NCBI RefSeq assembly: GCF_030028105.1
Contig: NC_092395.1
Span: forward strand, 43,924,459 to 43,988,458
Length of the DNA stretch: 64,000 bases
Origin: Mobula birostris
Taxonomy: Eukaryota
Reading direction: 5' to 3'
The notes under the pieces are model-generated. The model was not told where the DNA came from and did not search any database. It saw only the letters and a program-made list of their open reading frames with translations. This document shows, piece after piece, positions 12,791 through 64,000 of this stretch (positions are counted from its first letter, which is position 1; each line of letters starts with the position of its first letter). The position numbers and the translations under genes are program-made.

Positions 12791-13669
12791 ACGCCGATGA
12801 TAAAAGGCTGTCTCTCCCAAAGGGTTAATAAGCCTGCCTGTGTTTCGGGTCGCTGTGTGTGTGTAGCAATACCGGAGGATCCACCGTGGAGTTCTTCCCG
12901 CTGTCTGCTTGTACCAATGTACACAATAGCTTTTTGCATCTTATTGTTACTCAGTTCAGATTTCATCCCCATATTTGGACAGAATTCAATCCCTCGAACA
13001 GTCAGGGTGGATTCGAGCTCACTATCTGAATGACTTGTGTGGAATTAAGAAGTCTGTACTGTCCGCTCCGTTGTTCTGAAGTTGTGAAGGACATCACTAT
13101 ACGAGGGATAGAAAGTGTTAAGAACTGAATCAGAGAAATAAGGGGAGAAGATTATTTTTTATTTCAAAACCACGGAAGAAAATGTGCAACATTCACAACT
13201 ATAGTTATGATATTCAGTGAGGTAAACTTTAAAAAGCAGACACAAATATGGCACAATATCCACTCATGTGGCTTCCTACGTCGATTCCCCTTTAATTGAT
13301 CAAGAAAATTTCCAGCTTATGCAGTCTTAACTTAGGCTGCACCGAGCTACAACGCACGTAACTGCCGGACTATGCAGTCGGCAGCGACCATCAGTCTTCC
13401 ACCGAGCTTCCAGCAGCACTTCGTGCGTGTCGGCAGCCTATAGATCAGAGGATTGTCTGTTACACATTTGCTGGGGATAAAAAAAAGAGGACACTGACCC
13501 TTGTATCTGCCTTCTTCTGTGCAAATATGGCAGATATGAGACACAGAACAATCTGTTCGTACACTTTTGTTTTATCAACTGATCTGCTCTTTGCCGCCAG
13601 TGACACCGCCTCATCCTGATGGTGTGAGACGGTGAATTGGAAGGTTTCAAATACTTTGCTCTAGTTGAT

Positions 13670-14207: not shown

Positions 14208-14565
14208 CTGGAGAATCCCAGACTCCGACTCAGCCTCCGACCGTGTCGCTGAGTCCAGGTGCTACCGCCACGTTGGAAGGTAACATCGGAACAAAGGATG
14301 ACAGTTATGTATTTTGGTACAAGCAGTCACCGGGAACAGCCCCACAATGGATCCTGTACTACCATCACTCGCTCAGCGCCCCGACCTACGGGCCTGGGTT
14401 TAGCAGCGACCGTTTCACGTCGACAGTCAACAGCGCCAGCACCATTTACCAGTTAATCATAAAAAAATGTGGAGCTGAATGACGCTGCCGTCTATTACTG
14501 CGGAAAGTGGGATTCATCGGGCAGTTATTACTTGTTCGGCCCAGAGACCAAGCTCTTTGTTACAG
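14208..14565 (+). pseudogene. Germline-joined VJ exon of a sigma-like Ig light chain (copy A), disabled
   Basis: tttacag| acceptor; GESQTPTQPPTVSLSPGATATLE(G)NIGTKDDSYVFWYKQSPGTAPQWILYYHHSLSAPTYGPGFSSDRFTST...[frameshift at the A7 run 14461-14467]...VELNDAAVYYCGKWDSSGSYYLFGPETKLFVT g|GTAAG. No RSS or spacer between V and J. Confidence 0.95.
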
Positions 14566-15712: not shown

Positions 15713-16035
15713 ATCAGCAGCTCCCCGACCCTTCAGTGAAACTGCTCGGGCCGCCAGCCGAAGAGATCTCCGCTAAAGGAACCGGCACCTTAGATTGCCT
15801 GGCCAGTAAATTGTCGATAGGCTTCCCTGTCGTCAGCTGGACAGTGAACGACAGTCCGACGAGCAGTGATGTGCAAACCAGCGGGGTGACTCAGAACGCG
15901 GACAAAACCTTCAGTCTCAGCAGCTACCTGACGGTGCCCGGCGCAGACTGGAGCAGTGGGAAGAGGTACTCCTGCTCAGTTCAACAAGGAGCAGCCTCGA
16001 CAATATCCGCAACAGTCACACAGTCCAACTGTTAA
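15713..16035 (+). CDS. Ig light-chain constant exon (copy A, sigma-like), open frame
   Basis: ccag| acceptor; DQQLPDPSVKLLGPPAEEISAKGTGTLDCLAS...VSWTV...TFSLSSYLTV...DWSSGKRYSCSV...QSNC*. Both domain Cys, the Trp and the terminal Cys are present; phase matches the VJ donor. Confidence 0.92.
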
Positions 16036-16364: not shown

Positions 16365-16370
16365 AATAAA
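16365..16370 (+). promoter_or_regulatory. Candidate polyadenylation signal, copy A
   Basis: AATAAA ~330 bp after the stop with downstream GT-rich sequence; positionally conserved in copies B and C. Confidence 0.6.
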
Positions 16371-17639
16371 GATGTTCAGTGCAGGAACGATTTCCGTGTG
16401 TGGGTCTTCTTCTCTCTATGCTCTTCCCGATCTCATCCGGGTGGGAGGAGGGAGGAGACTCGCGCGGGCGAGACGATACCGACCAGGGCCGTCCGGGGGT
16501 TGAAATAAGGTGAGAAATCCTACAGTCTTGTCGTTGGTGGGGGAGGGAGGAGGGGAGCGGGAGAGAGAAAGAGTGAGAGACACAGACAAACCGACAAACA
16601 AAGATTCCTGTGGGCGGGAAAGAAGTGATGAGGTGAGAAAAAGAGACCGCGAAGCAAAGAAGGGCATGAAGTCCGCGTGTCTCTCTCTCGATTTCCTTGC
16701 ACATATTTCCAACTCTAGCACAAGTCGTGACCCAGAATAAGAGAAGATTTCCACGCACTGTATAATATCTTTCAGGACCCCTTCCTCTACTATTTTCTCA
16801 TGGGAAAGTACCAGGCTGTATCTGAAGCTGCTGAATCATCTTCCCTTCCCCGGCAAAGATGTTCTCCACCATTGTCTACTCTCGGAGATTCCCCCAAACA
16901 TGTTCTCCAAACATTCTTGTCGACAAGCTCCCTTATCCTTCCTCAAATCACTCCCGCATTCCGGACTTCTTATAACCTTCCACTGTGCGTTACACGTTTA
17001 GCATATACTAAGAAGAAATCCATGTTAACTTGTTCCTTACACTCCGCCCGTTGATTCTTCTTTGATTGATTATACAAGAGCAAAATACAAACTAAATATA
17101 GGTTGCAAGTTCACTTTGTAATTTTAATATAACCCTGTAAGCAGAGAAATTATCATGATAGACTTCAGAAGGGCAATCGGATAAAAATAAACTGCTGCAG
17201 AAATACCAGAAATGGTACGATTATAACAACTTCCGATGGGAGGCTAAGCCAGAGGTATATTTGAAAGTTTATTCCTTAGCTTCTGCGAACGTGTCGGATG
17301 GGGGGTGTTATCACATCGGAGAATGTCCTCTTCCATTGTCGCTATCCACGTGTTCTTTCTAGGCATCTAGCTAGTACTCTCTATATTTCGATTCGTAGGA
17401 AGACCTATACTGTAGATTGCGATGGTTCTAGCACTTTCAATCTACCCAAAACAGAACAATGCACCGTTATTATTAGTTTTTTTTGAGAGTGGAAAAAATA
17501 TTTTCATTTCGTTATTCTCCCTGTTTAAGCACATCAGTTATTATTTCCCTTGCACTGGTACTAGGTACGTGTTAACATTTTCGATTGTCATAAGATCCCC
17601 ATACAAACGGGAGGCCTTGCAAACCTTACAATCATTTCA

Positions 17640-17815: not shown

Positions 17816-18319
17816 CGGTAAACAAAAATTCCTCCCCCCTCCTTTATTCAACACTCTGACGTTTTACCTACGTATTACTTCACCCTGGGTTCCCTCCTCC
17901 GTCCCTTATTCCCGTTTTCCACTCTTCCCTCGTATCAGATACTTACTTCCGTATCCCTTGACATTTCCCAGTCACTTGGCTTCACCTATCATATTCTAGC
18001 TGGACTCCTTTTCTCCCCGACCCCTACCCTTTAATTCAGACATCTCGTCCCTTCCCTCTCAGTGCTAAAGAACGGTCTCGGTCCGATTTTATCATGCTTG
18101 TACTTCCCTTCCCCACTGTATGAGGCCCATTGCTGCCCTCATCTTCCTCCTACTCTGCTGTACATTTCATCATCAGATGATCCTTGGGGTAAGGATCCGA
18201 AATTCTGGTTGTACAAGGCTTGAGATAGTATTAACAGTAAGGTATGGGTTGATGTTATACTGTGGATGAAAAATCCTTTTTTTTATTTTAATGATGCCTG
18301 CGGGTGGGTGGGGTGGGGT

Positions 18320-19040
18320 AATAGAATGTGTGATACACCCAATGAATGTCCTTACTTTAAAATTTAGACCAATTGTACGATTTTATTTCTTGCCGGTTCC
18401 CATAACAGCTGATAAACTTCTTCAGTCCCTTCAGAGTACGATCTTGATCCGCATATATACATGGAATTGTCATTATACAACTTGAATAGGTGACAACCAT
18501 ACAGTGCAAATATTTAAACCGTTGCTGCCGTGGCGGGGTTTTGATGGAATCAAGTTGGGCAGGCCAGTCTCTTTTCTAATATGGGCAGCTAGTTTTTTTT
18601 GTTTTTTTTTTCCGGAAAGCTCTCCTTTTGACCTGTTGCTGTAAATATATTTCTGTGGCTGAGTTGAATGCAGCGACATTCAATCCTGTAACTCCGCCAT
18701 GGACGTACCCAAACAGGGCTGGGAAAGGAGGACGACTGGACATGGGGATAACAACATTATTCCGTAAATACCCAGAGCTCCAGAAACACCGATAGAAGCC
18801 CCAAAGACCCTATCCCTAGGGGGAGGAAGGATCTTCGAAGATGGACTGTAACTTGAAATTTTAGATGGCTCTGGTCGGCTGCTGTCAGTGGCCTATGCCC
18901 CAGTAGGGGTAATGTCTTTAAGTAATTTTCACCCCATAGGCGAGCTTTCCCGGGGCGTATAGGGGTGGAAACTTCCGTAAAACAGGTACAGTGTTTCTTA
19001 ATACGGTTTTCCCCATGTAATCGGTGCTGGAGGGGTTGGT
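18320..19040 (-). mobile_element. pol: ERV-L-like pol fossil (copy A; RNase H to integrase, 5'-truncated)
   Basis: Minus frames give CFTEVS (WFTDGS-like), DQDRTLKGLKKFISCYGNRQEIKSYNWSKF and KDIHWVYHTFYYP; paralogous to the B and C fragments. Confidence 0.68.
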
Positions 19041-19077
19041 GGCCGAACAAGTAATAACTACCCGATGAATCCCACTT
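19041..19077 (-). other. Inverted 37-bp CDR3/J fragment of a joined VJ
   Basis: Reverse complement aagtgggattcatcgggtagttattacttgttcggcc (KWDSSGSYYLFG) matches 14505-14541 at 36 of 37 bases. Confidence 0.92.
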
Positions 19078-19784: not shown

Positions 19785-20106
19785 ATCAGCAGCTCCCCGA
19801 CCCTTCAGTAAAACTGCTTGGGCCGCCTGCCGAGGAGATCTCCGCTAAAGGAACCGGCACCTTAGTCTGCCTGGTCAGTAAGCTGTCGGTGGGCTTTCCT
19901 ATCGTCAGCTGGACAGTGGACGGAAGTGTGACCAGCCGTGAGGTGAAAACCAGCGCGGTGAGGCGGGACACGGACAGCACTTTCAGTCTCAGCAGCTCCC
20001 TGACGGTGCCCGGCACAGACTGAAACAGTGGCAAGGTGTATCCTGCGTGGTTAAACTAGGAGCAGACTCAACGACATCAGCAAAAGTCGCACAATCCAGC
20101 TGTTAA
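19785..20106 (+). pseudogene. Ig light-chain constant exon (copy B), disabled and V-less
   Basis: DQQLPDPSVKLLGPPAEEISAKGTGTLVCLVSKLSVGF...; TGG>TGA at 20021-20023 and a 1-nt deletion in the YSC codons; preceded by a partial J-C intron (19079-19784, paralogous to 15021-15712). Confidence 0.93.
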
Positions 20107-20464: not shown

Positions 20465-21689
20465 GATGTTCAGTGTAGGAATGATTTCCATGTGGGAGTC
20501 TTGTTCTCTTGTGTGCGCTTCCCATTCTCATCCGGGTGGGAGGAGGGAGGTGACTCGTGCGGGCTAGAAGGCGCCGACCAGTGTAGTCCGGGGGTTGAAA
20601 TAAGTTGAGAAATCCTACATTCTTGCCGTTGGTGGAGGTGGGAAAGAGGGGAGGGGGAGAGAGAAAGAGCGAGAGACACAGACAAACCGGCAAACGGAGA
20701 GACCTGGGGGAGGACAAAATTGATGAGGTAAAAATAAGAGACCGCGAAGCAAAGAAGGGCATGGGGTCGGAGTGGTAGGGATGACTCTCTCTCGATGTCT
20801 TTGTACCTATTGAAACTCTAGCACTAGTTGTGACCCCGAATAAGAAAAGATTCCATGCAGCGGATAATATCTTTCAGGACTCCTTGCCCCAATATTTTCC
20901 CATGAGAATGTACCAGGCGGTACCTGCAGCCGCTGAATCATCTTCTCTTCCCAGACAAAGATGTTCTCCACCACTGTCTACTCTTGGAGATTCTCCAAAC
21001 ATTGTAATGGAAGAGTTCCTTTGTCCTTTCTCAAAACACTCCCACATTCCAGACTAGCATCTTATAACCTTCCACCGTGTGTTACACATTTAGCATATAC
21101 GAAGAAGGAATCAATATTAACTTTTTCCTTGCACTCCGCCCATTAATTCCTCTTTGGTAGATTATACAAGAACAAAATACAGACTAAATACAGGTTGCAA
21201 GTTCACTTCGTAACTCTAATGTAATCATTTAAGCAGTACAATTATCACAAAAAGACTTCATAATGGCAGTCGGATAAGGATAAACTGCTGTACAGACACC
21301 ACTAATGGTAAGATTATAGCAATTTACGATGGGATGCTGAGCCACAGGTATATTTGAAAGTTTGTTTCTTAGTCCCCAGGAACGTCTCGGGGCGAGGGGT
21401 GTTATCACATCGGAGGATGTCTTCTTCCATAGTGGCTATTAGCGTGTCATTCCCGAACGTCCGGACAGCGCTCTCCATATCTCGATTCGAAGGAAGACCT
21501 ATGTCGCGGATTGCAATGGTTCTAGCACTTTTAATCGACCTGAAGCAGAACAATGCACCACTATTATCGATTTTTAAAATTATTATCATTTTGTTATTCT
21601 CCCTGTTTTAGCACATCAGATACTCTTTCCCTTGCACGGATACTACATACGTGTTATCATCATTTTCGATTGCCATAATCTCCCCATTT

Positions 21690-22030
21690 CATACGGGAGA
21701 CCTTGCAAACCTTGCAATCACTTGACCTACAAATCTACTGGGATCCGTTCATGTGTCTCGTGCTTTCGGCGCGGCCCCTCTACATTGGTGAGACGTAAAT
21801 TGAGGGATCGCTTCGTAGAGCAACTCCGCACCATTTGCCACGAGCGGGACTTCGCGGTGGCCAAAAATTTTAATTCTGATACTCGTTCCCGTTCCGGTTC
21901 CAACGTGTCGATCCATGGCTTCCTCTTGTGCCAAGACGAGGCCACCCTGAGGGTGGAAGAGCAACACTTCCTTTTCCGTCTTGGTACCCTCAACCTGATG
22001 GCATAAATATCGAATTATCCTTCCGATAAA
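21690..22030 (+). mobile_element. Penelope GIY-YIG endonuclease remnant (copy B)
   Basis: RRKLRDRFVEQLRTICHERDFAVAKNFNS...VSIHGFLLCQDEATLRVEEQHFLFRLGTL matches the recalled Penelope GIY-YIG C-terminus. Confidence 0.75.
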
Positions 22031-22479
22031 CAAAAATTCTTACCCCTCCTCTATTCATCACTCTGACCTTTTACCTTCCCATTACTTCACCCTGAGTCCC
22101 CTCCTCCGTCCCTTACTCCCATTGTCTACTTTTCCCGCCTATTCGATTCTCACTTCCATATCCCTAGATCTTTCCTATTCACCCGGCTTCACCTATCATA
22201 TTCCAGTTAGCCTCCTTTCCCTCTCCCACCCCTACCCTTTCAGTCAGGCATCTTGTCCCTTCTGTCTCAGTCCTAAAGAAGTGTCTGGGTCCGATTTTAT
22301 CATGTTTGTACTTTCCCTTCTCTCTGTATGACGCCGATTCGGCCCGGTATCTTTTTCTTGTTCTGAAGTATTTTTCATCATCAGAAGTTATGATTGTACA
22401 AGGCTTGAGATAGTATGTGCAGCAAGTTATGGGTTGATGTTAACAGACGAGAAGTCCATTCATTCTTTTAATTTGAACT

Positions 22480-23490
22480 GGTGCCTGGGGGATGATAGGA
22501 TGTTTGATACACCCAGTGAATGCCTTTGCTGGCAGTCCAGTGTTTCATTGCTCGCCCTGAAAATTGAGACCAATTGTACGATAGTATTTCTTGGGGGTTC
22601 CTATAATAACTGATATACTTCTTCAATCCATTCAGCGTATGATCGGATCCGTCTATATACATGGAATTGTCATTATACGACTTGAATAGGCGTCAACCAT
22701 ACAGTGCAAGTCTTTAAATCGTTGCTGCCGTGGCGGGTTTCTGATGAAATCAATCTTTTCTCTTTTCTAATACGGGCAGCTAGTTTCTCGGGAAGGCTCT
22801 CTTTTTGACTTATTGCTGAAAACATGTCCCCGTGACTGAGTTAAATGCAGCGAGTTTCCACTCCTGTAACTTCACCATGGACGCTCCCAAACATGGCTGG
22901 GGAAAGAGGCGGATTGGACATGGGGATAACAACCACATTACGTAAATACCCAGAGCTACAGACACGCCAACAGAAGTTCCAAAGACCCTATCCCCAGGGA
23001 GTTGAAGTATCTTCGAAGATGGGCTAAACTTAAGGTTCTGGTCCAGGATAGAGGACTCCGGCCAACGGCTGTCAGCGATCTTTGCCCCAGTAGGGGTTTC
23101 CACCCCGGTAGGCCTAATTTCCCGGGACGTACAGGGATGAAAACTTTCGTAAACCAGGTATAGTGTTTCTTAATACGGCAATCCCAATGTAATCGGTGGT
23201 GGGGATGGGGTGGGGGAGAGGCTGACACAGGGACGGGTGGTTTGATAGTCCCTGTACATCCATCCACGGACATGCTACATGCTGACACGCCGCCGAGTCC
23301 TCACTTGTTGTTTCTTCAATGTACCACTTCCGCTTTATAATTGAGATTTGTCGTTCCTTCTGCGTTTTGTTCGCGCATACCTCCGTGAGCACGCTCGTCA
23401 TGATGAGGAGGTAGGGTTTCATAGTGACCTCGCTTCTTTCTGTAACCGCTTCTGTCTCCACTAAAGTCAATATGTCCATGCGGAAACAGC
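22480..23490 (-). mobile_element. pol: ERV-L-like pol fossil (copy B; RT connection, RNase H, integrase core)
   Basis: LVETEAVTERSEVTMKPYLLIMTSV...ISIIKRKWYIEE; HYTWFTKV; MVDAYSSRIMTIPC; GLKKYISYYRNPQEILSYNWSQFSG; KGIHWVYQTSYHP. Motifs are colinear with recalled ERV-L pol. Confidence 0.78.
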
Positions 23491-23833
23491 TAACGCCAGC
23501 AGGCCAGACAGCATGAATATTAAAATGAAGTCGATGTTTCGGCCGGGCCCTTCATCAGGACTGGAACATAACGGGGAACACGTCGGAATAAATAAAGTGG
23601 TGGGGATGGAGGGGAAGGACAGGTGTGTCTCTTCACATAACCATAGACAAACGTGAGTCTATCTCAGCCGAATGTAGTCAGTGCGGAAGCCTTCACATAG
23701 AGTGGAAAGAACCAATGGTTCAGACCCGCTGAGAATCGAAATACTTCTCCAGCTCCGACATTATTAATTACTCTGAAACTGTGTCCCTCAGGAGGAAATG
23801 TAACCTGTAATAGATATTAAATATTATATGTAA

Positions 23834-23879: not shown

Positions 23880-23880
<1 letters not shown>

Positions 23881-24707
23881 TGTTACGTACCCCGTAACTG
23901 GGTTGCCAAACCAGCAGAAATGGACAACTTAGTTGGAGTCTGGATTACTGGAACTAAGAAAGTTTTATTAAAGAAATAAGCAACACAGTACTCTAATCGT
24001 AAGGATATAAATGCAACAGGTTAGCAATGATAAAACACACATGTACACAGAACTAGGGTAATAGGAATCAAACAAGCTCTATCGCAGTCGGGGGGTAAAA
24101 TGATCAGTCTCAAGTGACGCAGAGTTCAGTTCAGCTTAGTACAGTTCGCAGTAATGGCTGTTGTGCCGTTGGAGAGAGAAAGAGGGAGATATGCAAATCC
24201 TGATTCAGACAGACCTTTGTTCTTCGCAGTTAGCTTTCGGGCGAACCTTTTTACTGTCTTCTGTGGTCACCGACTGTGACACTTCCGTTCCGGATACGAC
24301 CGTTCTTCTGCGCTGAACCCGGCACCCAGGCAAGGGCGGACACACACACCAGGGTCCCGCCGATCGTACCTTTTTACCCTGTGCGACTATGGTCCGTCCC
24401 GCGACCTGACCTCCAAACTCTGACCAACTTGTGGGGGCACACCGCTCTTCCAGGGTCTCGTTATCTCGTGATCTCGTGGTCTGTTGTGCCTTAGTGAACC
24501 TGTTCCTTTTATCCCCCTGCTGGGTTATCGCCTGTCCATCAAAATTCAAACAGTTCAGGTTCAAAGCAACCGGTCTGTCAATACTCTTAATTGTGTTTCT
24601 TTTCCGTTACCTCTCTCCTCTCTCATTAACATTTTGAACGCTTCTCCATTGTCTCCCTTATCTCTCTCATCAGTATCAATATTGTGATAACTTGGTTCTT
24701 CGTCACA
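23881..24707. mobile_element. Solo LTR (827 bp)
   Basis: TGTTACG...CGTCACA termini and an exact 4-bp TSD ATAC (23877-23880, 24708-24711). Confidence 0.82.
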
Positions 24708-25112
24708 ATACTCTTCAAAAATGCTAGTTTTTCCCTAGTGCAACGATAATATAGCAACAACTGAATAATGAAAGAATACTTGGCATGAATTGCAGCCTGT
24801 GGTCAGATATTTTGTCACTCCAGTCCGTCGACGTGATTACAATATTGCCAATTGAGTGGCGAGCTCCCGTCCATGAAGATGAAAAGGAGCTGTGATGTAG
24901 GTCACCTCTGTCATAAGGGTCAAGGTACATTTCTTAGGAGACAGAGCTCCAGGAAGCAATCCCACTTAACCAGAGATCTTTATATTTAAAAACTAGAGAT
25001 GTGATGTCAGTGCTGGTCATTCCAGTGGGAATTCACCATTTGGGCATCATCTGCATTACATCAGACTCTTTCTGCTCACGCTCCACCTCGTCTGTATTGG
25101 CCACGTTACAAT

Positions 25113-26068
25113 TGTTACATGCCTCAAGGAGATATGTGATTTTTTTTGTGAGAATGATGTAATGGTCTTTTGGAGGTCACCTGATGTGATTTTCCCGCCG
25201 ATGTGAGGTCATGTGATGACATGTCCACCACGGGTATATAAGAGAAGACCCCAGATGACGCAGGTAGTTTGGCGGTAATGCACCATTAAGCTGGATGCCA
25301 ACCGCCGTAAAACAAGATACAGACAGACGCAGGTAGTTTTTAGGTTTTAGATTTCCAGGTAGAACGTACTGTGTCTCCGTTTCTGTTGCGTATTTTGTTT
25401 TATGGCGCAGTTTCATTTTTTAAAACGATTGTTACGTTCTGTTGCAAGGTACAGTAGTGCTGGATTGGCAATTTTTGCTAGATCTGTTGATGCACCTTAT
25501 TCCAGCAGTAGCACGGGGGAGTGAAGACTTCATCCAAGTACAGGACCCGAAGGATTGAGAGGAGTCGGTATCGTTCGGCAGTTTAACAAAGGATCGACCT
25601 TATTGAGTCTTCGTTGAAGGAGTAGTGACCTGCATCAAAGATAACTCTTGCCAAAAGATTAAGGAGTTCATGCGGGGTTTCCTCTCTAGAAGAATTTAAG
25701 GTCAGTTGTATTAAACTGTTTATTTTCGGCATCGTGAATCCTTTGGACAGAAACAGCAGGAAAGTCGCGTTTATGAAGAAATCCTTCTCCAGAGAAGTCT
25801 CTCCCAATTGAACGTATAAATCTGTTGGACTTTCGAATTTACCATTAAAATAATACTATATCTGACTTTTCAGCTTTAAGAACTATTTACGCATTTAAAG
25901 CTGTAAGAACCAGTGCCGAGTGGCGACTTGTTGAACGGTTGCATAACGGTTAACTTCCGGTTAAGGTTTTCGTTTGTATTTTAAATCGTTTTTCCGTGTT
26001 TAATAAATGTTTGGCCGTTTTTATATAAACTGTCTCGATTGATATTCATTGTTTCCGGTTACGTAACA
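25113..26068. mobile_element. Solo LTR (956 bp)
   Basis: TGTTAC...GTAACA termini and an exact 4-bp TSD CAAT; internally similar to 36002-36878. Confidence 0.85.
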
Positions 26069-27039
26069 CAATTAACACAAATCTCTCTGGAAATATATTG
26101 GGGTAAAAGCTGATAAACTACCCACCAGCCAATTCAATGATACAATAGAGGCAGAAGCTGCTGGAAATATTGAGCAACTTACACAACACTCCATCACCAG
26201 AGACATTTATTGTTACACGAGCTTGGCGGTGGATGAACCCAAGTGCAGAACATGGGCGTGGGGGCAGAGTCGGGAGGCGTTATTGCCGTAGCGAGCGTGG
26301 AATCGGTTTCTAGGAGAGTCTTTACCCGAAGTTTTGGGTTTGGAGAGAATCCAGGAGCGATGCTAGACTGAGAACTGACAGTCCTAAGAACCATGAAACG
26401 AGGTTGCTCGCACCGGTGTCGACCAACGAACTGGCAGCGCCTTGTTGTGATCATAGGGTCTTTATCCTGCATTTTCTGATGGAAAGCAGGTGTGTGAAGT
26501 TAGTGGAACCTGGGGATGATTGGAAGTTAAACGAGGGAATTGAGGCCCAATTCCCGAGGTAAATAGCAAGGTGGGGGATTTCCAGAAGGGACCATGACAT
26601 TAATTGATATTTTTAAATGCCCACCAACTCTCACTGTTATCTTGAACAACTGTTTCCCATCCTTGTACTTTCCTTTTTCTCAATTCGTACATCCATGAAA
26701 CATCTGTTCTCAAACCTTCCATTCTAGAAAATGCGAGATATCCTCTTTTATTTATAAAAACAACAGGGGAACTCTTTCATCATTAATGCAGCTCCCATCC
26801 ACATCTCCTCAATTTCCCACACATCTTCTCTAATCCCATTTTACCGTTATTGTAACAGGAATAGATCATTCCCCACCACTTCATTGGCCTCTACACCCAG
26901 CATATAATTCTTCACAAATCAAGCATCTCGTTAGAGATCCCCTCACCAGGCGCATATCACTGATTTCCGTAGAGACTGCTCCTGCATTATCCTCTTCTCC
27001 CACTGATCTTCTGCCTAATAGCTACCCCTGCCACTATCA

Positions 27040-56455: not shown

Positions 56456-56669
56456 GTTCCTTTGTTTCTAACATGGGACACACTTGCCCCTCCTGTACCT
56501 CCCCACCACATTTAATGTCGCGTGTTCCCCATTCTATTCCCGTCCGGATGAAGGAAGTCGCCCTGAAACATCGACTGTTTATTCATTTTCATATTCATGC
56601 TGTCTGGCCTGCTGGTGGTCCTCCAGATTTTGCGCTTATGCACTAAATAAATAGAATCCTGCGTTAGGT

Positions 56670-57700
56670 GTTGCCTTCCTCAACATATTGATGTTAGGGG
56701 ACACAGAAGTTATTACAGAGGGAGGCGACATCGTTATGAATCCCTACCTCCTCATCATGACGTGGGTGCTCTTGGTGGTCTCCACTAAAAAAAAACAACG
56801 GCAAAGATCAGTTGTAAAGCGGAAGTTATACATTGCACAATCAGCAAGTGAGGACTCAGAGGGTGTCAGCCTGTTCCATGCCCATGGTGGATGCAGACAG
56901 ACTATCGAACTTCCGGTCTCAGTGTCACACTCCTTCAACCCCGACATTTCACCCGCACCAACGATTATATGGGTGTTGCCAGATTAAGAAAAAACACAGC
57001 TGGTTTACAGAAGTTTCCATTTTTGTACGCCCGGGAAAACCGACGTACAGGCGTGGAAACTTAGTTAAGCCGTCCTGAGGCGAAGGCCAGTGACAAATTC
57101 CTTTATCCCGAGGCCGAGCCATTCTTTCGAGGTTCAGCGCATCTTGGAAGATCCTCCCTCTCTCCGGGGATAGGGTCTTTGGAGCTTCTGCAGGCGTTTC
57201 TACAGCTCTGTTTTTTCTTTCACAGAATGTGGTTGCTAACCCGATGCCCAGTTCTACTTCTTATCAAAGCCCTGTTTGGGACCGTCCACGGCGGGGTTAC
57301 CGAAATAGAATATTGGTGCATTTAACTCGGCTGCAGGAACATTTTTACAGGAACAGCTCAAAAAGCAAAGCTTTCCGGAGAGACCAGCCGCCCATATTGT
57401 AAAAGAGAATAGCCTGTCCATATCCGGCAGATTGATTCCAGCAGAATCACTCCACGGCATCTACGATTTAGATATTTGCACAGTATGGTTGTCGCCTATT
57501 TTAGTATTATAATGACAATTCCATGTATATTGACGGATCAGATCACACTCCAAAGGGATTGAAGAAGTTAATTATTTGTTAGGGGACCCCGCAAGAAATA
57601 CAATATATAATTGGTATCATTTTTCAGGGCAAGCACTGGAAGACTGGACTGCCAGCAAAGGCATTCATTGGGTGAATCGCACATCCTATTACCCCCAGGC
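56670..57700 (+). mobile_element. pol: ERV-L-like pol fossil (copy C)
   Basis: LGDTEVITEGGDIVMNPYLLIMTWV...RSVVKRKLYI; HSWFTEVS; GLKKLIIC*GTPQEIQ; HFSGQALEDWTASKGIHWVNRTSYYPQA. Confidence 0.78.
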
Positions 57701-58169
57701 ATTTAAAGAATGCGTGGACTGTTCGTGCATTCCTTGCTGAAAGCATTATCCCGCGCCTTGTACAACCTGAACAACGGATCCTTACCCCAAGATCGCAAAT
57801 ATACTTCAGGACAGGAAGAAGAAGCGGGCGCCAACGGGCCTCATACAGAGGGGAAGGATAGTGCAAACATGATATAATCGGACCGAGACTGTTCTTTATC
57901 ACTGAGAGAGAAGGAGCGAGATGCCTGAATTAAAGGGTGGGGGTGGGGGAGGGAAAGGAGGTAAGCTGGAATGTAATAGCTGAAGCCAGGTGGATGGGTA
58001 AGGTCAAGGGATAGGGAAATAAGAATCTGACAGGAGAGAACAGCGGACAGTGAGAGAAAGGGACGGAGGGTGGGACCCAGGGTAAATTAATAGACAGGTA
58101 AAAACTTTGAATGGTTAATAAAGGGGAGGGGACATTTTTTGTTTAACGGAAGTAGAAATCGATATTTAT

Positions 58170-58430: not shown

Positions 58431-58491
58431 ATATTCCAACTTAACTACTCTGCAAGGAGGAGGTGGTGGCAAACGGAAATGAGGGTACATA

Positions 58492-60390
58492 CGGTTGAAG
58501 TCAGAAGTTTACATATATATTAGGCCAATATATTGAAACTCAGTTTTTCACAATTCCTGACACTTAATCCCAGAAAACATTCCCTGTCTTAGGTTAGTTA
58601 GGATCACTACTTTATTTTAAGAATGGGAAATGTCAGAATAATAGCAGAGAGAATGATTTATTGCAGTTTTTTATTTCTGTCATCACTTTCTCAGTGAGTC
58701 AGAAGTTTACATACACTTTGTTAGTATTTAATTGCATTGCCTTTAAATTGATTAACTTGGGTCAATTGTTTTGGGTAGCCTTCCACAAGCTTCTCACAGC
58801 AAGTTGCTGGAATTTTGTTCCATTCCTCCAGACAGAACTGGTGTAACTGAGTCAGGTTTGTAGGGCTCCTTGCTCTCACACGCTTTTTCAGTTCTGCCCA
58901 GAAATTTTCTATCGGATTGAGATCAGGGCTTTGTAATGACCACTCCAATACCTTGATTTCGTTGTCCTTAAGCAATTTTTCCACCACTTTGGAGGTATGC
59001 TTGGGGTCATTGTCCATTTGGAAGACCCATTAGCGACCGCGTTTTAACTTCCTGGCTGATGTCTTGAGATGTTGCTTCAATATATCCACGTAATTTCTTT
59101 CCTCATGATGCCATCTATTTTGTGAAGTGCACCAGTCCCTCCTGAAGTAAAGCAGCCCCACAACATGATGCTGCCACTTCCACGCTTCACGGTTGGGATG
59201 GTGTACTTCGGCTTGCAAGCTTCACCATTTTTCCTCCAAGCATACCGATGGTCATTATGGTCAAACAGTTCATTTTATTGTTTCATCAGACCAGAGGGCA
59301 TTTCTCCAAAAAGTAAGATCTTTGTCCCCATGTGCACTTGCAATCTGTAGTCTGGCTTTTTTTTATGGCGGTTTTGAAGCAGTGGTGTCTTCCTTGCTGA
59401 GCAGCCTTTCAAGTTATGTCGATATAGAACTCGTTTTAATGTGGATATAGATACTTGTCTACCTGTTTCCTCTGGCGTCTTCACAAGGTCCTTTGCTGTT
59501 GTTCTGGGATCGGTTTGTACTTTTCGCACCAAAGTGCGTTCATCTCTAGGAGACAGAATGCGTCTCCTTCCTGAGCGGTATGACGACTGCGTCGTCCCAC
59601 GGTGTTTATAATTGCTTACTATTGTTTGTACAAATCAACGCGGTACCTTCAGGCGTTTGCAAATTGCTCCCAAAGATGAACCAGACTTGACATCATTTTC
59701 TCACCTCAATCCGATAGAAAACTTGTGGGCCTAAGAGAAAAAGCGTGTGCGAGCAAGGAGGCCTACAAACCTGACTCAGTTACACCAGTTCTGTCTGGAG
59801 GAATGGAACAAAGTTCCAGCAACTTACTGTGAGAAGCTTGTGGAAGCAATTTGCAAACGCCTGAAGGTACCGCGTTCATCTGTACAAACAATAGTACGCA
59901 AGTATAAACACCATTGGACCACGCAGTCGTCATACCGCTCGGGAAGGAGAAGCATTCTGTCTCCTAGAGATGAACGTACTTTGGCACGAAAAGTGCAAAT
60001 CGATCCTAGAACAACAGCAACGGAACTTGTGACGATGCTGGAGGAAACGGGTACACTAGTATCTATATCCACAGTAAAAGGAGTCGTTTTGGAAGCTTGT
60101 GGAAGCTTCCGGAAGGTTAGCCAAACCGTTTGACCCAAGTTAAAAAATTTAAAGCAAAACAAGGAAATACTAACAAAGTGTATGTAAACTTTGGAAAGTG
60201 ATGAAAGAAATAAAAGCTGAAATAAATCATTCACTCTGATATTACTCTGACATTTCACATTCTTAAAATAAATTAGTTATTCTAGCTGACCTAAGAAAGG
60301 GAATGTTTTCCAGGATTAAATGTCAGGAATTGTGAAAAACTGAGCTAAATGTGTTCAGCTAAGGTGTATGTAAACTTCTAACTTCAACTG
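58492..60390 (-). mobile_element. Sleeping-Beauty-like Tc1 transposon, rearranged (two 3' ends)
   Basis: IR/DR termini cggttgaagtcagaagtttacata...tatgtaaacttctaacttcaactg; TA on both sides (58490-58491, 60391-60392) versus a single TA in copies A and B; MDNDPKHTSK...SPDLNPIENFW...FKGNAIKY on the minus strand. Confidence 0.93.
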
Positions 60391-61578
60391 TACTTAGTAC
60401 TGGTGCAAGGGAAAGAATATCTGATGTGTTTCAACAGGGGGAATAACAAAGGGAATAATTTTAACAATCTTAAAAAAACTGATAATAACCGTTGTTCTGC
60501 TTTCGGTAGATTGAAAGTCCTGGAACTATTGCAATTCCTTTGTGACAGCATCGTCACAAGTTCCTTTGAATCGAGATATAGAGTGTACAGTCTGGCTGCT
60601 TGGAAAGGACACGCTATTGAAGAAGACATCCTCCAATGTGATAACCCCCCTCGCCCCGACGCTTTGGAGGAAGCTAACGAACAAACTTTCAAATATACTT
60701 TTGGCTTAGCCTCCCATCATAAATTGCTATAGTTGCACGATTAGTTGTGATTGTTCAGCAGTTAATTTAGCCGACTCCCCTTATGAACTCTATTGTCATA
60801 ATTGCACTGTTTTAACGATTATATTACCGTGACGACCTGTGTTTAGTCTACATTTCGCTCTGGTATAATCTACCAAAGAGGAATCAACGGGTGGAGTATA
60901 ACGAAAAAGTTAAAATTGATTCCTTCTTAGTATATGATAAATGTGTAACACACAACAGGGGGTTTGTAAGATATTAGTCTGAAATGTGGGAATAATTTGT
61001 GAAAGGACAAAGGGACCTGTTCACAACAATATTTGGAGAAATGAGTGTGAGCACTATTCTACATCCCCGAGAGTAGGTAATCGTGGAAAAGCCCTTTGTC
61101 TGTGAAGACGAAATGATTCAGCAGCCTAGTACTGTCCCAAGGGAAACGATTCGGGCAAGGGGAGTTGAAGGGCATTAACAGGGCAATGTTTTCTACGTTG
61201 GGATCTTTTCTAATGCTGGGTCACGACTCCTGCTGGAGTTGGAAATAGGTACAACGACATCCAGAGAGAGTAATCTCTCCCCACTTCGACCTCCTTCCCT
61301 GTTCGCTTAGAAGTCTCTTTTTCTTACCTCAACAATTCCGTTGAACCTCAGAACACTCTGTTTTTCTGTCGGTGTCTCTCATTCTCTTCCTCTCTCCCTC
61401 GCCCCCTCGCTCCCTTCTCCACCAACTACAAGACTGTAGGATTTCTGACAGCCGGACTACTTTGGTCGGTGCCGTTCAGCCCGCGCGAAACTCCTCCCTC
61501 CTCCCACCCGGATGAGAATGGGAAGCGCATACAAGTGTAAAACACTCACACAGAGAAATGAATCCTGCACTGAATATC

Positions 61579-61926: not shown

Positions 61927-62238
61927 TTAACAGTTGGATTGTCCGTCTGTGCGGATGTTGTCGAGGCTGCTCTGGTTTAGCTACGTAGCAGAATACCTTG
62001 CCACTGCTCCAGTCTGTGCCTGGCACCGTCAGGGAGCGGCTGAGAATTAACATGTTGTCTGTGTTCTGCCTCACCGCGCTGGCTTGCACCTCACGGCTGG
62101 TCGGACTCGCGTCCACTGTCCAGCTGACGACAGGGAAGCCTACCGACAGCTTACTGATCAGGCAAACTAAGGTGCCGGTTCCTTTAGCGGAGATCTCCTC
62201 GGCAGACGACCCAAGCAGTTTGTCCGGGAGCTGTTGAT
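61927..62238 (-). pseudogene. Ig light-chain constant exon (copy C), disabled
   Basis: ccag| acceptor; DQQLPD---KLLGSSAEEISAKGTGTLVCLISKLSVGF...; 9-nt deletion, YSC reads FCY, and two 1-nt deletions near the 3' end put the terminal Cys out of frame (312 nt versus 323 nt in copy A). Confidence 0.92.
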
Positions 62239-63891: not shown

Positions 63892-64000
63892 TTGTAAAAA
63901 AGAGCTTGGTCCCTGGGCTGAACAAGTAATAACTGCCCCATGAATCCCACACTTCCGCAGTAATAAACGGCACCGTCACTTAGCTCCACATTTCTTTTTA
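63892..64000 (-). pseudogene. 3' part of a germline-joined VJ exon (copy C), +1 frameshift in CDR3; continues beyond the window
   Basis: NVELSDGAVYYCG [+1 nt] WDSWGSYYLFSPGTKLFFT a|GTGAG; 62 nt from the Gly after Cys to the donor versus 61 in copy A; no RSS. Confidence 0.9.

Follow-up and report, generated by a model that had tools for sequence, protein, structure and literature searches.

Class III endogenous retroviruses (ERVs) are already known as abundant in cartilaginous fish, and the remnant described here is ordinary in this respect. For six chondrichthyan genomes, Table 2 of PMC11089739 gives 2,843 RT loci of clade III, the majority of the ERV RT loci there. In addition, the retroviruses of cartilaginous fish are spread across the tree (PMC6001957), and a spuma-type ERV is described from a catshark (PMC10699275). 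CmiERV of the elephant shark comprises likewise old ERVs of cartilaginous fish, but these group with the snakehead retrovirus and the epsilonretroviruses and are defined by env (PMC4422223). The class III order PR-RT-tether-RNase H-IN with a YIDD motif is described for ERV-S and XtERV-S, both of which possess an env; a dUTPase is present in XtERV-S and missing in ERV-S (PMC8278194). A mouse class III Pol (P0040, a cluster of 753 with Mus musculus members) has no env and carries a dUTPase after IN; from its host and its dUTPase it is presumably MuERV-L. The nearest database proteins to the remnant come from stingrays, namely the Gag-Pol proteins of Hemitrygon akajei (XP_072891825.1, P0017) and Hypanus sabinus (XP_059841264.1, P0020), which have the same domain order, lack a dUTPase and are filed as uncharacterized. 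Members of the P0017 cluster are named 'Friend virus susceptibility protein 1-like'. The literature searched held nothing on an ERV in a chondrichthyan IgL cluster or on the family of the remnant; subscription journals, supplements and Repbase/Dfam were outside its scope and may hold the family. A scan of IMG/VR for named retroviral references gave 18 pattern matches, none of which was confirmed.

The window, i.e. the whole stretch of 64,000 nucleotides analysed here (C30:43924459-43988458 of a 4.0-Gb assembly), contains three IgL C exons, A and B on the plus and C on the minus strand, inside duplicated blocks which are 70-80% alike. Positions are those of the window unless given with a contig. 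Cassettes A and C show germline V-J joining, and cassette B is without a V-J. Germline joining (PMC4279169), the cluster layout and the stingray origin of the nearest database proteins point to a cartilaginous fish, probably a ray. The CDR lengths of the cassettes are intermediate between those given for sigma and sigma-2 in PMC5985310. A single additional base in a run of A near 14465 breaks the V-J frame of cassette A, and a poly(A) signal follows its C exon at 16365-16370. The V-J of cassette C is 5'-truncated; it ends at 63892 and continues beyond the window. Two putative RNA runs gave contigs over V and C with GT..AG joints from J to C and left the integrase bins uncovered, which says nothing on expression.

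Each copy of the remnant is the 3' end of one provirus, and the three places and strands named in a sequence-only reading of this DNA, as well as the antisense orientation to the C exon, proved correct (Table 1). In element sense the order is connection-domain end, RNase H start, integrase core, 3' tail, polypurine tract (PPT) and U3 of the 3' LTR. The distance of about 2.3 kb 3' of the C exon given in that reading has to be revised, since copy B extends from 23497 to 20787, with its near edge ~0.68 kb from the C stop; tail, PPT and U3 had been missed. Nor are positions 22480-23490 one stretch of pol as had been assumed. An unrelated dispersed repeat occupies 22869-23095, and a deletion has removed ~0.45 kb from RNase H and zinc finger in comparison to the relatives L107 and L117, according to a noisy alignment. 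The RNase H of the remnant comprises ~30 codons, split by the dispersed repeat with its 15-bp target duplication. From WFT to the first catalytic Asp motif of the integrase, located at 22757 in copy B, there are ~50 codons in this copy vs 223 residues in P0017.

The connection, WFT and integrase motifs compared earlier with ERV-L pol were borne out by alignment to intact Pol. LVETEAVT..VTMKPYLLIMTSV..SIIKRKWYI, a peptide of copy B, can be aligned with the connection domain of an intact class III Pol; WFTDGS has its aligned counterpart in WFTEVS of copy C, with WFTKVF at this place in copy B and CFTEVS in copy A; and the integrase core was aligned over 90-103 residues with intact Pol proteins. 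Copy B peptides also align with open frames of dispersed elements in the same genome. The integrase motif quoted as YYGTPQEIQSDNGSHFSG is a blend held by no single copy, and the connection domain reported ahead of RNase H is present in copies B and C but absent from copy A, which is cut at 19040.

Table 1 Features of the window (positions in window numbering)
Feature	Position	Strand	Basis
Cassette A V-J exon, germline-joined IgL	14208..14565	+	Pfam V-set; sequence; integrity check
Cassette A IgL C exon, open	15713..16035	+	Pfam C1-set 2.3e-15
Copy A: U3 of 3' LTR (16683-17044) and 3' tail	16683..17625	-	match to both L123 LTRs and other relatives
Copy A: integrase core, inserted repeat (about 18691-18925), RNase H start	18100..19040	-	alignments
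Inverted 37-nt copy of V-J junction at A/B cassette break	19041..19077	-	97% to cassette A V-J
Cassette B C exon, broken (stop and frameshift)	19785..20106	+	integrity check
Copy B: U3 and start of R of 3' LTR, pointing at C exon	20787..21133	-	alignment with both LTRs of L123
Copy B: post-integrase 3' tail with purine-rich tract (21134-21155)	21134..21710	-	matches to 11 dispersed relatives
Second dispersed repeat inserted in copy B	21720..22295		no Pfam hit
Copy B: few RNase H codons, deletion junction near 22820, zinc-finger end, integrase core	22300..22868	-	alignments; weak Pfam rve E=0.05, below cut-off
Inserted dispersed repeat, ~230 bp	22869..23095	+	1094 first-look candidates genome-wide
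Copy B: connection-domain end (23276-23470), linker, RNase H start (WFT 23148-23156)	23096..23497	-	alignments
Copy C: connection domain, RNase H start (WFT 57001-57009), inserted repeat (about 57061-57297), integrase core	56660..57880	+	alignments
Tc1/mariner transposon in copy C tail	58490..60392	-	Pfam DDE_3, HTH_Tnp_Tc3_2; inverted ends
Copy C: 3' tail and U3 (60894-61268)	60390..61268	+	matches to relatives
Cassette C C exon, frameshifted	61927..62238	-	Pfam C1-set

The LTR of copy B starts with TG at 21133, directly after the PPT. It was recognised by its match to the element L123, in which two direct repeats, 86% alike (K2P 0.156), flank gag-pol and correspond to this stretch of the remnant. 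The LTR homology ends ~350 bp in, so that U5 is missing entirely and R for the most part. In the remnant, as in L123, ~670 bp of element DNA lie between integrase and LTR, which implies that the founder had no env; the tail of copy B has no room for a dUTPase either. A search for dUTPase gave no hit in the remnant or its tail, and Pfam searches with nine single frames of the three copies gave a sub-threshold rve hit in only two. Stops and frameshifts occur in every copy read. Near the carriers (349 kb less 7,459 bases; also 364 kb) there is no RT, gag, missing part of RNase H or 5' LTR, and a search for the far host flank of the provirus and its target duplication returned matches to common repeats only. 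Reconstruction of an ancient virus from the copies, as had been proposed, is thus not supported: they comprise <2 kb of the 3' end, without RT, gag and env, and the founder was already broken.

The ~230-bp insert has a fixed length, a tail and a 15-bp duplication, whose two copies (22854-22868 and 23096-23110) are identical at 13 of 15 positions. In all eight other places read, the family is ~240 bp long (40 of the 1094 candidates scored), and a piece of the insert is retained by all nine pol carriers. It may be a non-autonomous RTE-like element, and the repeat at 21720-22295 may be Penelope-like. In the non-autonomous bipartite type of RTE described in PMC7245038 the 5' UTR and the 3' end of an RTE LINE are joined, with a target duplication. 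An autonomous partner of the insert was not present among 148 matches. The Tc1 noted earlier in copy C was verified by its Pfam domains. Past copy B, dispersed repeats with TG...CA-like ends at 23880-24700 and 25100-26080 are possibly solo LTRs of other families. The inverted 37-nt copy of the V-J junction sits exactly where the V-J of cassette B and the 5' part of copy A were lost, and looks like a templated insertion at a rearrangement.

As judged from its sequence, the remnant is a class III (ERV-L/ERV-S-like) retroviral pol. Frameshift-aware scores against the stingray Pol P0017 were 93-165 in all five segments, with 20 shuffles per segment giving a mean of 34-36 and a maximum of 46; control scores were 33-80 for three Gypsy elements and 32-80 over Gypsy, class II, gamma-like and NYNRIN-like sequences. 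In a tree of connection domain and integrase (64 rows), the cassettes, represented by five rows, group together (100/99) within 16 rows of one dispersed family (99/92), and this family lies inside a group with mouse, amphibian, bird, killifish and stingray Pol (96/86), 15 Gypsy and four class II rows being outside. In a second tree, of RT, connection domain and IN (48 rows), the copies fall in the dispersed family (SH-aLRT 98), which is joined by the proteins of Hemitrygon and Hypanus (96) and has the mouse Pol as a neighbour (95); Gypsy, class II, gamma-like and NYNRIN-like rows are all separate from the remnant group. The trees were built from 200-455 columns, with the mouse Pol as anchor and some window rows less than half filled; they are without foamy or snakehead retrovirus rows, and class I is represented by two gamma-like rows only (including the checked P0211). 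These scores and placements support the earlier claim of a true retrovirus rather than Gypsy. Among solved structures, the IN of a relative matched foamy IN best (3e-9), and the RT of a sister family matched MLV RT best (1e-30) with foamy RT behind (2e-20).

The suggested search for elements outside the Ig loci was successful, as dispersed relatives with RT, scattered over the genome, were found. All 24 integrase-DNA candidates of the family were scored; eight lie on C30 and the rest on other contigs, with 68-82% identity over short blocks. A search with the integrase of a relative (150 of 4090 candidates scored) ended in a tail of Gypsy matches. Around L123, at C6:35.52-36.26 Mb, more than 20 near-identical integrase matches at regular spacing represent a tandem array carrying the family. 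The remnant itself is without RT; in its four closest RT-bearing relatives the RT motif is YIDD in two (L107, L109) and FIND and YING in the other two. Like the remnant, the mouse Pol has no env, and its connection motif is almost the ERV-L motif given in the earlier reading. However, its dUTPase has no counterpart in the remnant or in the 20 elements scanned, which yielded just three weak hits beyond the span of the Pfam dUTPase. By the features given in PMC8278194 the dispersed family is class III yet neither ERV-L in the strict sense, because it has no dUTPase, nor ERV-S, because it has no env. The label ERV-L-like therefore stands for the class but not for the strict lineage. The remnant family shares the lack of dUTPase with ERV-S, whereas both ERV-S and XtERV-S carry an env (PMC8278194), for which the remnant family has no room. 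Env-like motifs (CWIC/CWVC or LQNRLALD) follow the integrase in five of the 20 elements (L031, L037, L041, L043, L044), which belong to other class III families; these env remnants of sister families resemble the gamma-type env of XtERV-S (PMC8278194).

The two stingray proteins belong to the same clade as the remnant (SH-aLRT 96) but to sister families and not to its own, and the frames of P0017 are long and open, whereas the remnant is broken and partial. With stingray Pol proteins of the clade in NCBI and clade III ERVs as the majority in chondrichthyans (PMC11089739), the proposal of an undescribed chondrichthyan retrovirus is not supported. The clade III loci of PMC11089739 are given as counts, so the remnant family is likened to them by clade and not matched to individual loci.

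With C exon A as query, at least 26 close C exons were found at C30 42.9-44.21 Mb (150 of 382 candidates scored), and the 8-9 kb behind each of the 26 were scanned. Remnant parts are present behind ten: pol behind nine and U3 behind seven. Neither pol nor tail nor U3 was found within 8-9 kb behind the 16 free cassettes or behind two degenerate C exons. The statement that every IgL cassette carries the remnant is thus true of all three in the window but only of ten of 26 in the cluster. The ten carriers make up one side of a 100/100 branch, both in the J-C intron tree and in the trees of the 3' flank, and the tree of the fragment itself mirrors the cassette tree, with a split of three vs five cassettes. 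This agrees with the earlier view of one insertion spread by cassette duplication. Because the carriers form one branch, the insertion is older than the growth of one sub-lineage and probably does not predate amplification of the whole cluster, as had been supposed; in the cassette tree, rooted at the midpoint, gain is favoured over loss.

Between two sub-groups of carriers the K2P distance is 0.27 for integrase, 0.30 for the connection domain and 0.27 for a neighbouring repeat; in host DNA of the same sub-groups it is 0.25 for the first 640 bp after C, 0.38 for the intron and 0.18 for the C exon. Among six carriers it is 0.26 for U3, 0.30 for the host flank and 0.21 for the 3' UTR. Differences at the three codon positions are 0.15/0.18/0.19 in the integrase and 0.17/0.18/0.19 in the connection domain; the C exon, as a control, has a third-position excess (0.085/0.090/0.154). 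Since the divergence equals that of flanks and repeats, lies above that of the C exon and is even over the codon positions, the remnant diverges neutrally, like flanking junk DNA. Half of K2P 0.27-0.30 would correspond to 61-68 My at a mammalian rate; with the rate that PMC4422223 assumes for sharks it would be 610-680 My, which is older than the lineage itself, hence no date is assigned; PMC10587355 gives a per-generation rate only.

We are fairly confident that the copies represent the decayed 3' end of an env-less, dUTPase-less class III ERV, which likely entered once, antisense behind a C exon, and was likely copied passively to ten cassettes. Directly observed are the remnant parts in their order, the placement in class III, the single branch of ten among 26 cassettes and the neutral divergence; from these we infer the following sequence of events. 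A single antisense insertion would have occurred behind the C exon of one IgL cassette. The 5' half, most of RNase H and R-U5 would then have been lost and the short repeat inserted; these lesions are common to all copies covering each place, which puts them before the duplications and makes the founder broken before its multiplication. Later, cassette duplications would have carried the remnant along passively, followed by private events such as the Tc1 in copy C, a 1.86-kb deletion in three cassettes and the A/B break. As the founder had no env, it probably moved within germ cells as a retrotransposon and not by infection. A Gypsy element or a domesticated integrase gene of the GIN1/NYNRIN type, for which the sub-threshold Pfam rve hits and the Gypsy copies behind four free cassettes might speak, is hardly conceivable: scores and trees keep the copies apart from Gypsy and NYNRIN-like rows, and the connection domain ahead of RNase H is accompanied by an LTR. 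It is unlikely, too, that the provirus is older than the whole cluster expansion and that the ancestors of the free cassettes lost it afterwards by deletion. The midpoint root falls between carriers and non-carriers, where one loss is as short as one gain, and no clean empty site, target duplication or far host flank was found; the free cassettes and the degenerate C exons, which belong to a third lineage, however, are without any trace within the scanned 8-9 kb, and partial deletions among carriers always spared some piece. Co-option of the fragment as a 3' enhancer or coding sequence of the cassettes would suit the constant location of the ten copies behind an immune gene, but is very improbable in view of the missing codon-position signal, the lack of excess conservation, the stops and frameshifts in every copy read, the loss of most of the fragment from three cassettes and its absence from most open ones. 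The remnant is likely functionless today.

One pattern is not predicted by pure neutrality. All seven cassettes with U3 show a stop, a frameshift or a loss in V-J or C, so that both exons are open in none of them vs nine of the 16 free cassettes (seven in a strict count); Fisher's test gives p 0.019 and 0.057, respectively, with cassettes that are kin and not independent. The nine comprise five which are plainly open, two unrearranged, one with a GC donor and one with an in-frame CDR3 deletion. The three carriers without U3 have open V-J exons and one common deletion of 1.86 kb, ending 12 bp outside U3; one is wholly intact, one lacks the terminal Cys and one has +1 in a C run, this break affecting the C exon at C30:44155150. 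A retained U3 could have acted as an antisense promoter, driving into the IgL C exon and lowering expression, with the consequence that cassettes keeping U3 decayed and those deleting it stayed usable. Its orientation towards the C exon, its distance of 0.65-1.05 kb behind the C stop, the difference in open cassettes and the open V-J exons of all three U3-less carriers would be consistent with this. The idea is nevertheless improbable, because kinship reduces the comparison to about five lineages vs one deletion event, only one of the three U3-less carriers is fully intact, the sole defect of cassette A is the +1 in the A run, which may be an assembly error, seven of the 16 free cassettes are broken too, the divergence of U3 is neutral and its TATA box is eroded. 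Equally improbable is the broader proposal of an ERV acting through an antisense U3 as a selective filter on the birth and death of IgL cassettes, combined with a class III family of rays, so far without a name, that lacks both env and dUTPase. The remnant would gain in importance only with a causal link between U3 and broken cassettes.

For virology the decayed class III 3' end brings little gain, as NCBI and other parts of the genome contain relatives in a better state of preservation. It is a useful shared marker in immunogenetics, where the insertion, with the deletions nested in it, puts the duplications of the IgL cluster in order; the sub-lineage could become datable if orthologous cassettes turn up in other rays. 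A run labelled as another organism contains contigs with at least 80% identity over the U3, integrase and connection bins; none of the pieces listed bridges host flank and provirus, so orthology is left unsupported. The marker further exposes a likely gene conversion: the C exon of cassette A groups with provirus-free cassettes (100/100), whereas its intron and its 3' flank fall among the carriers.

Several other features of the cluster were noted. A second passenger in a similar place is Gypsy, remnants of which follow the C exon in one clade of free cassettes (L069:3697-5200, L071:1468-2834, L073:569-4335, L078:1178-5317); their tblastn hits of 23-33% identity had been candidates for class III and were rejected as Gypsy, three of the four in the 64-row tree and L069 in a separate check. 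The two degenerate C exons of the third cassette lineage carry an internal inversion (C30:44035978-44036334 and 44118675-44119021), and a further C exon fragment came to light with them. A short inverted V fragment is located at 12836-12926, ~1.2 kb upstream of the V-J of cassette A, and recurs upstream of three other carriers. The stretch C30:43.98-44.16 Mb contains three occurrences of a unit of two cassettes, one with the 1.86-kb deletion and the other with a 5'-truncated V. An unrearranged V-RSS-J exists at C30:43267931 and 43425092 (L092, L094) and a V-RSS only at 43184238 (L091); most other cassettes are germline-joined with differing junctions.
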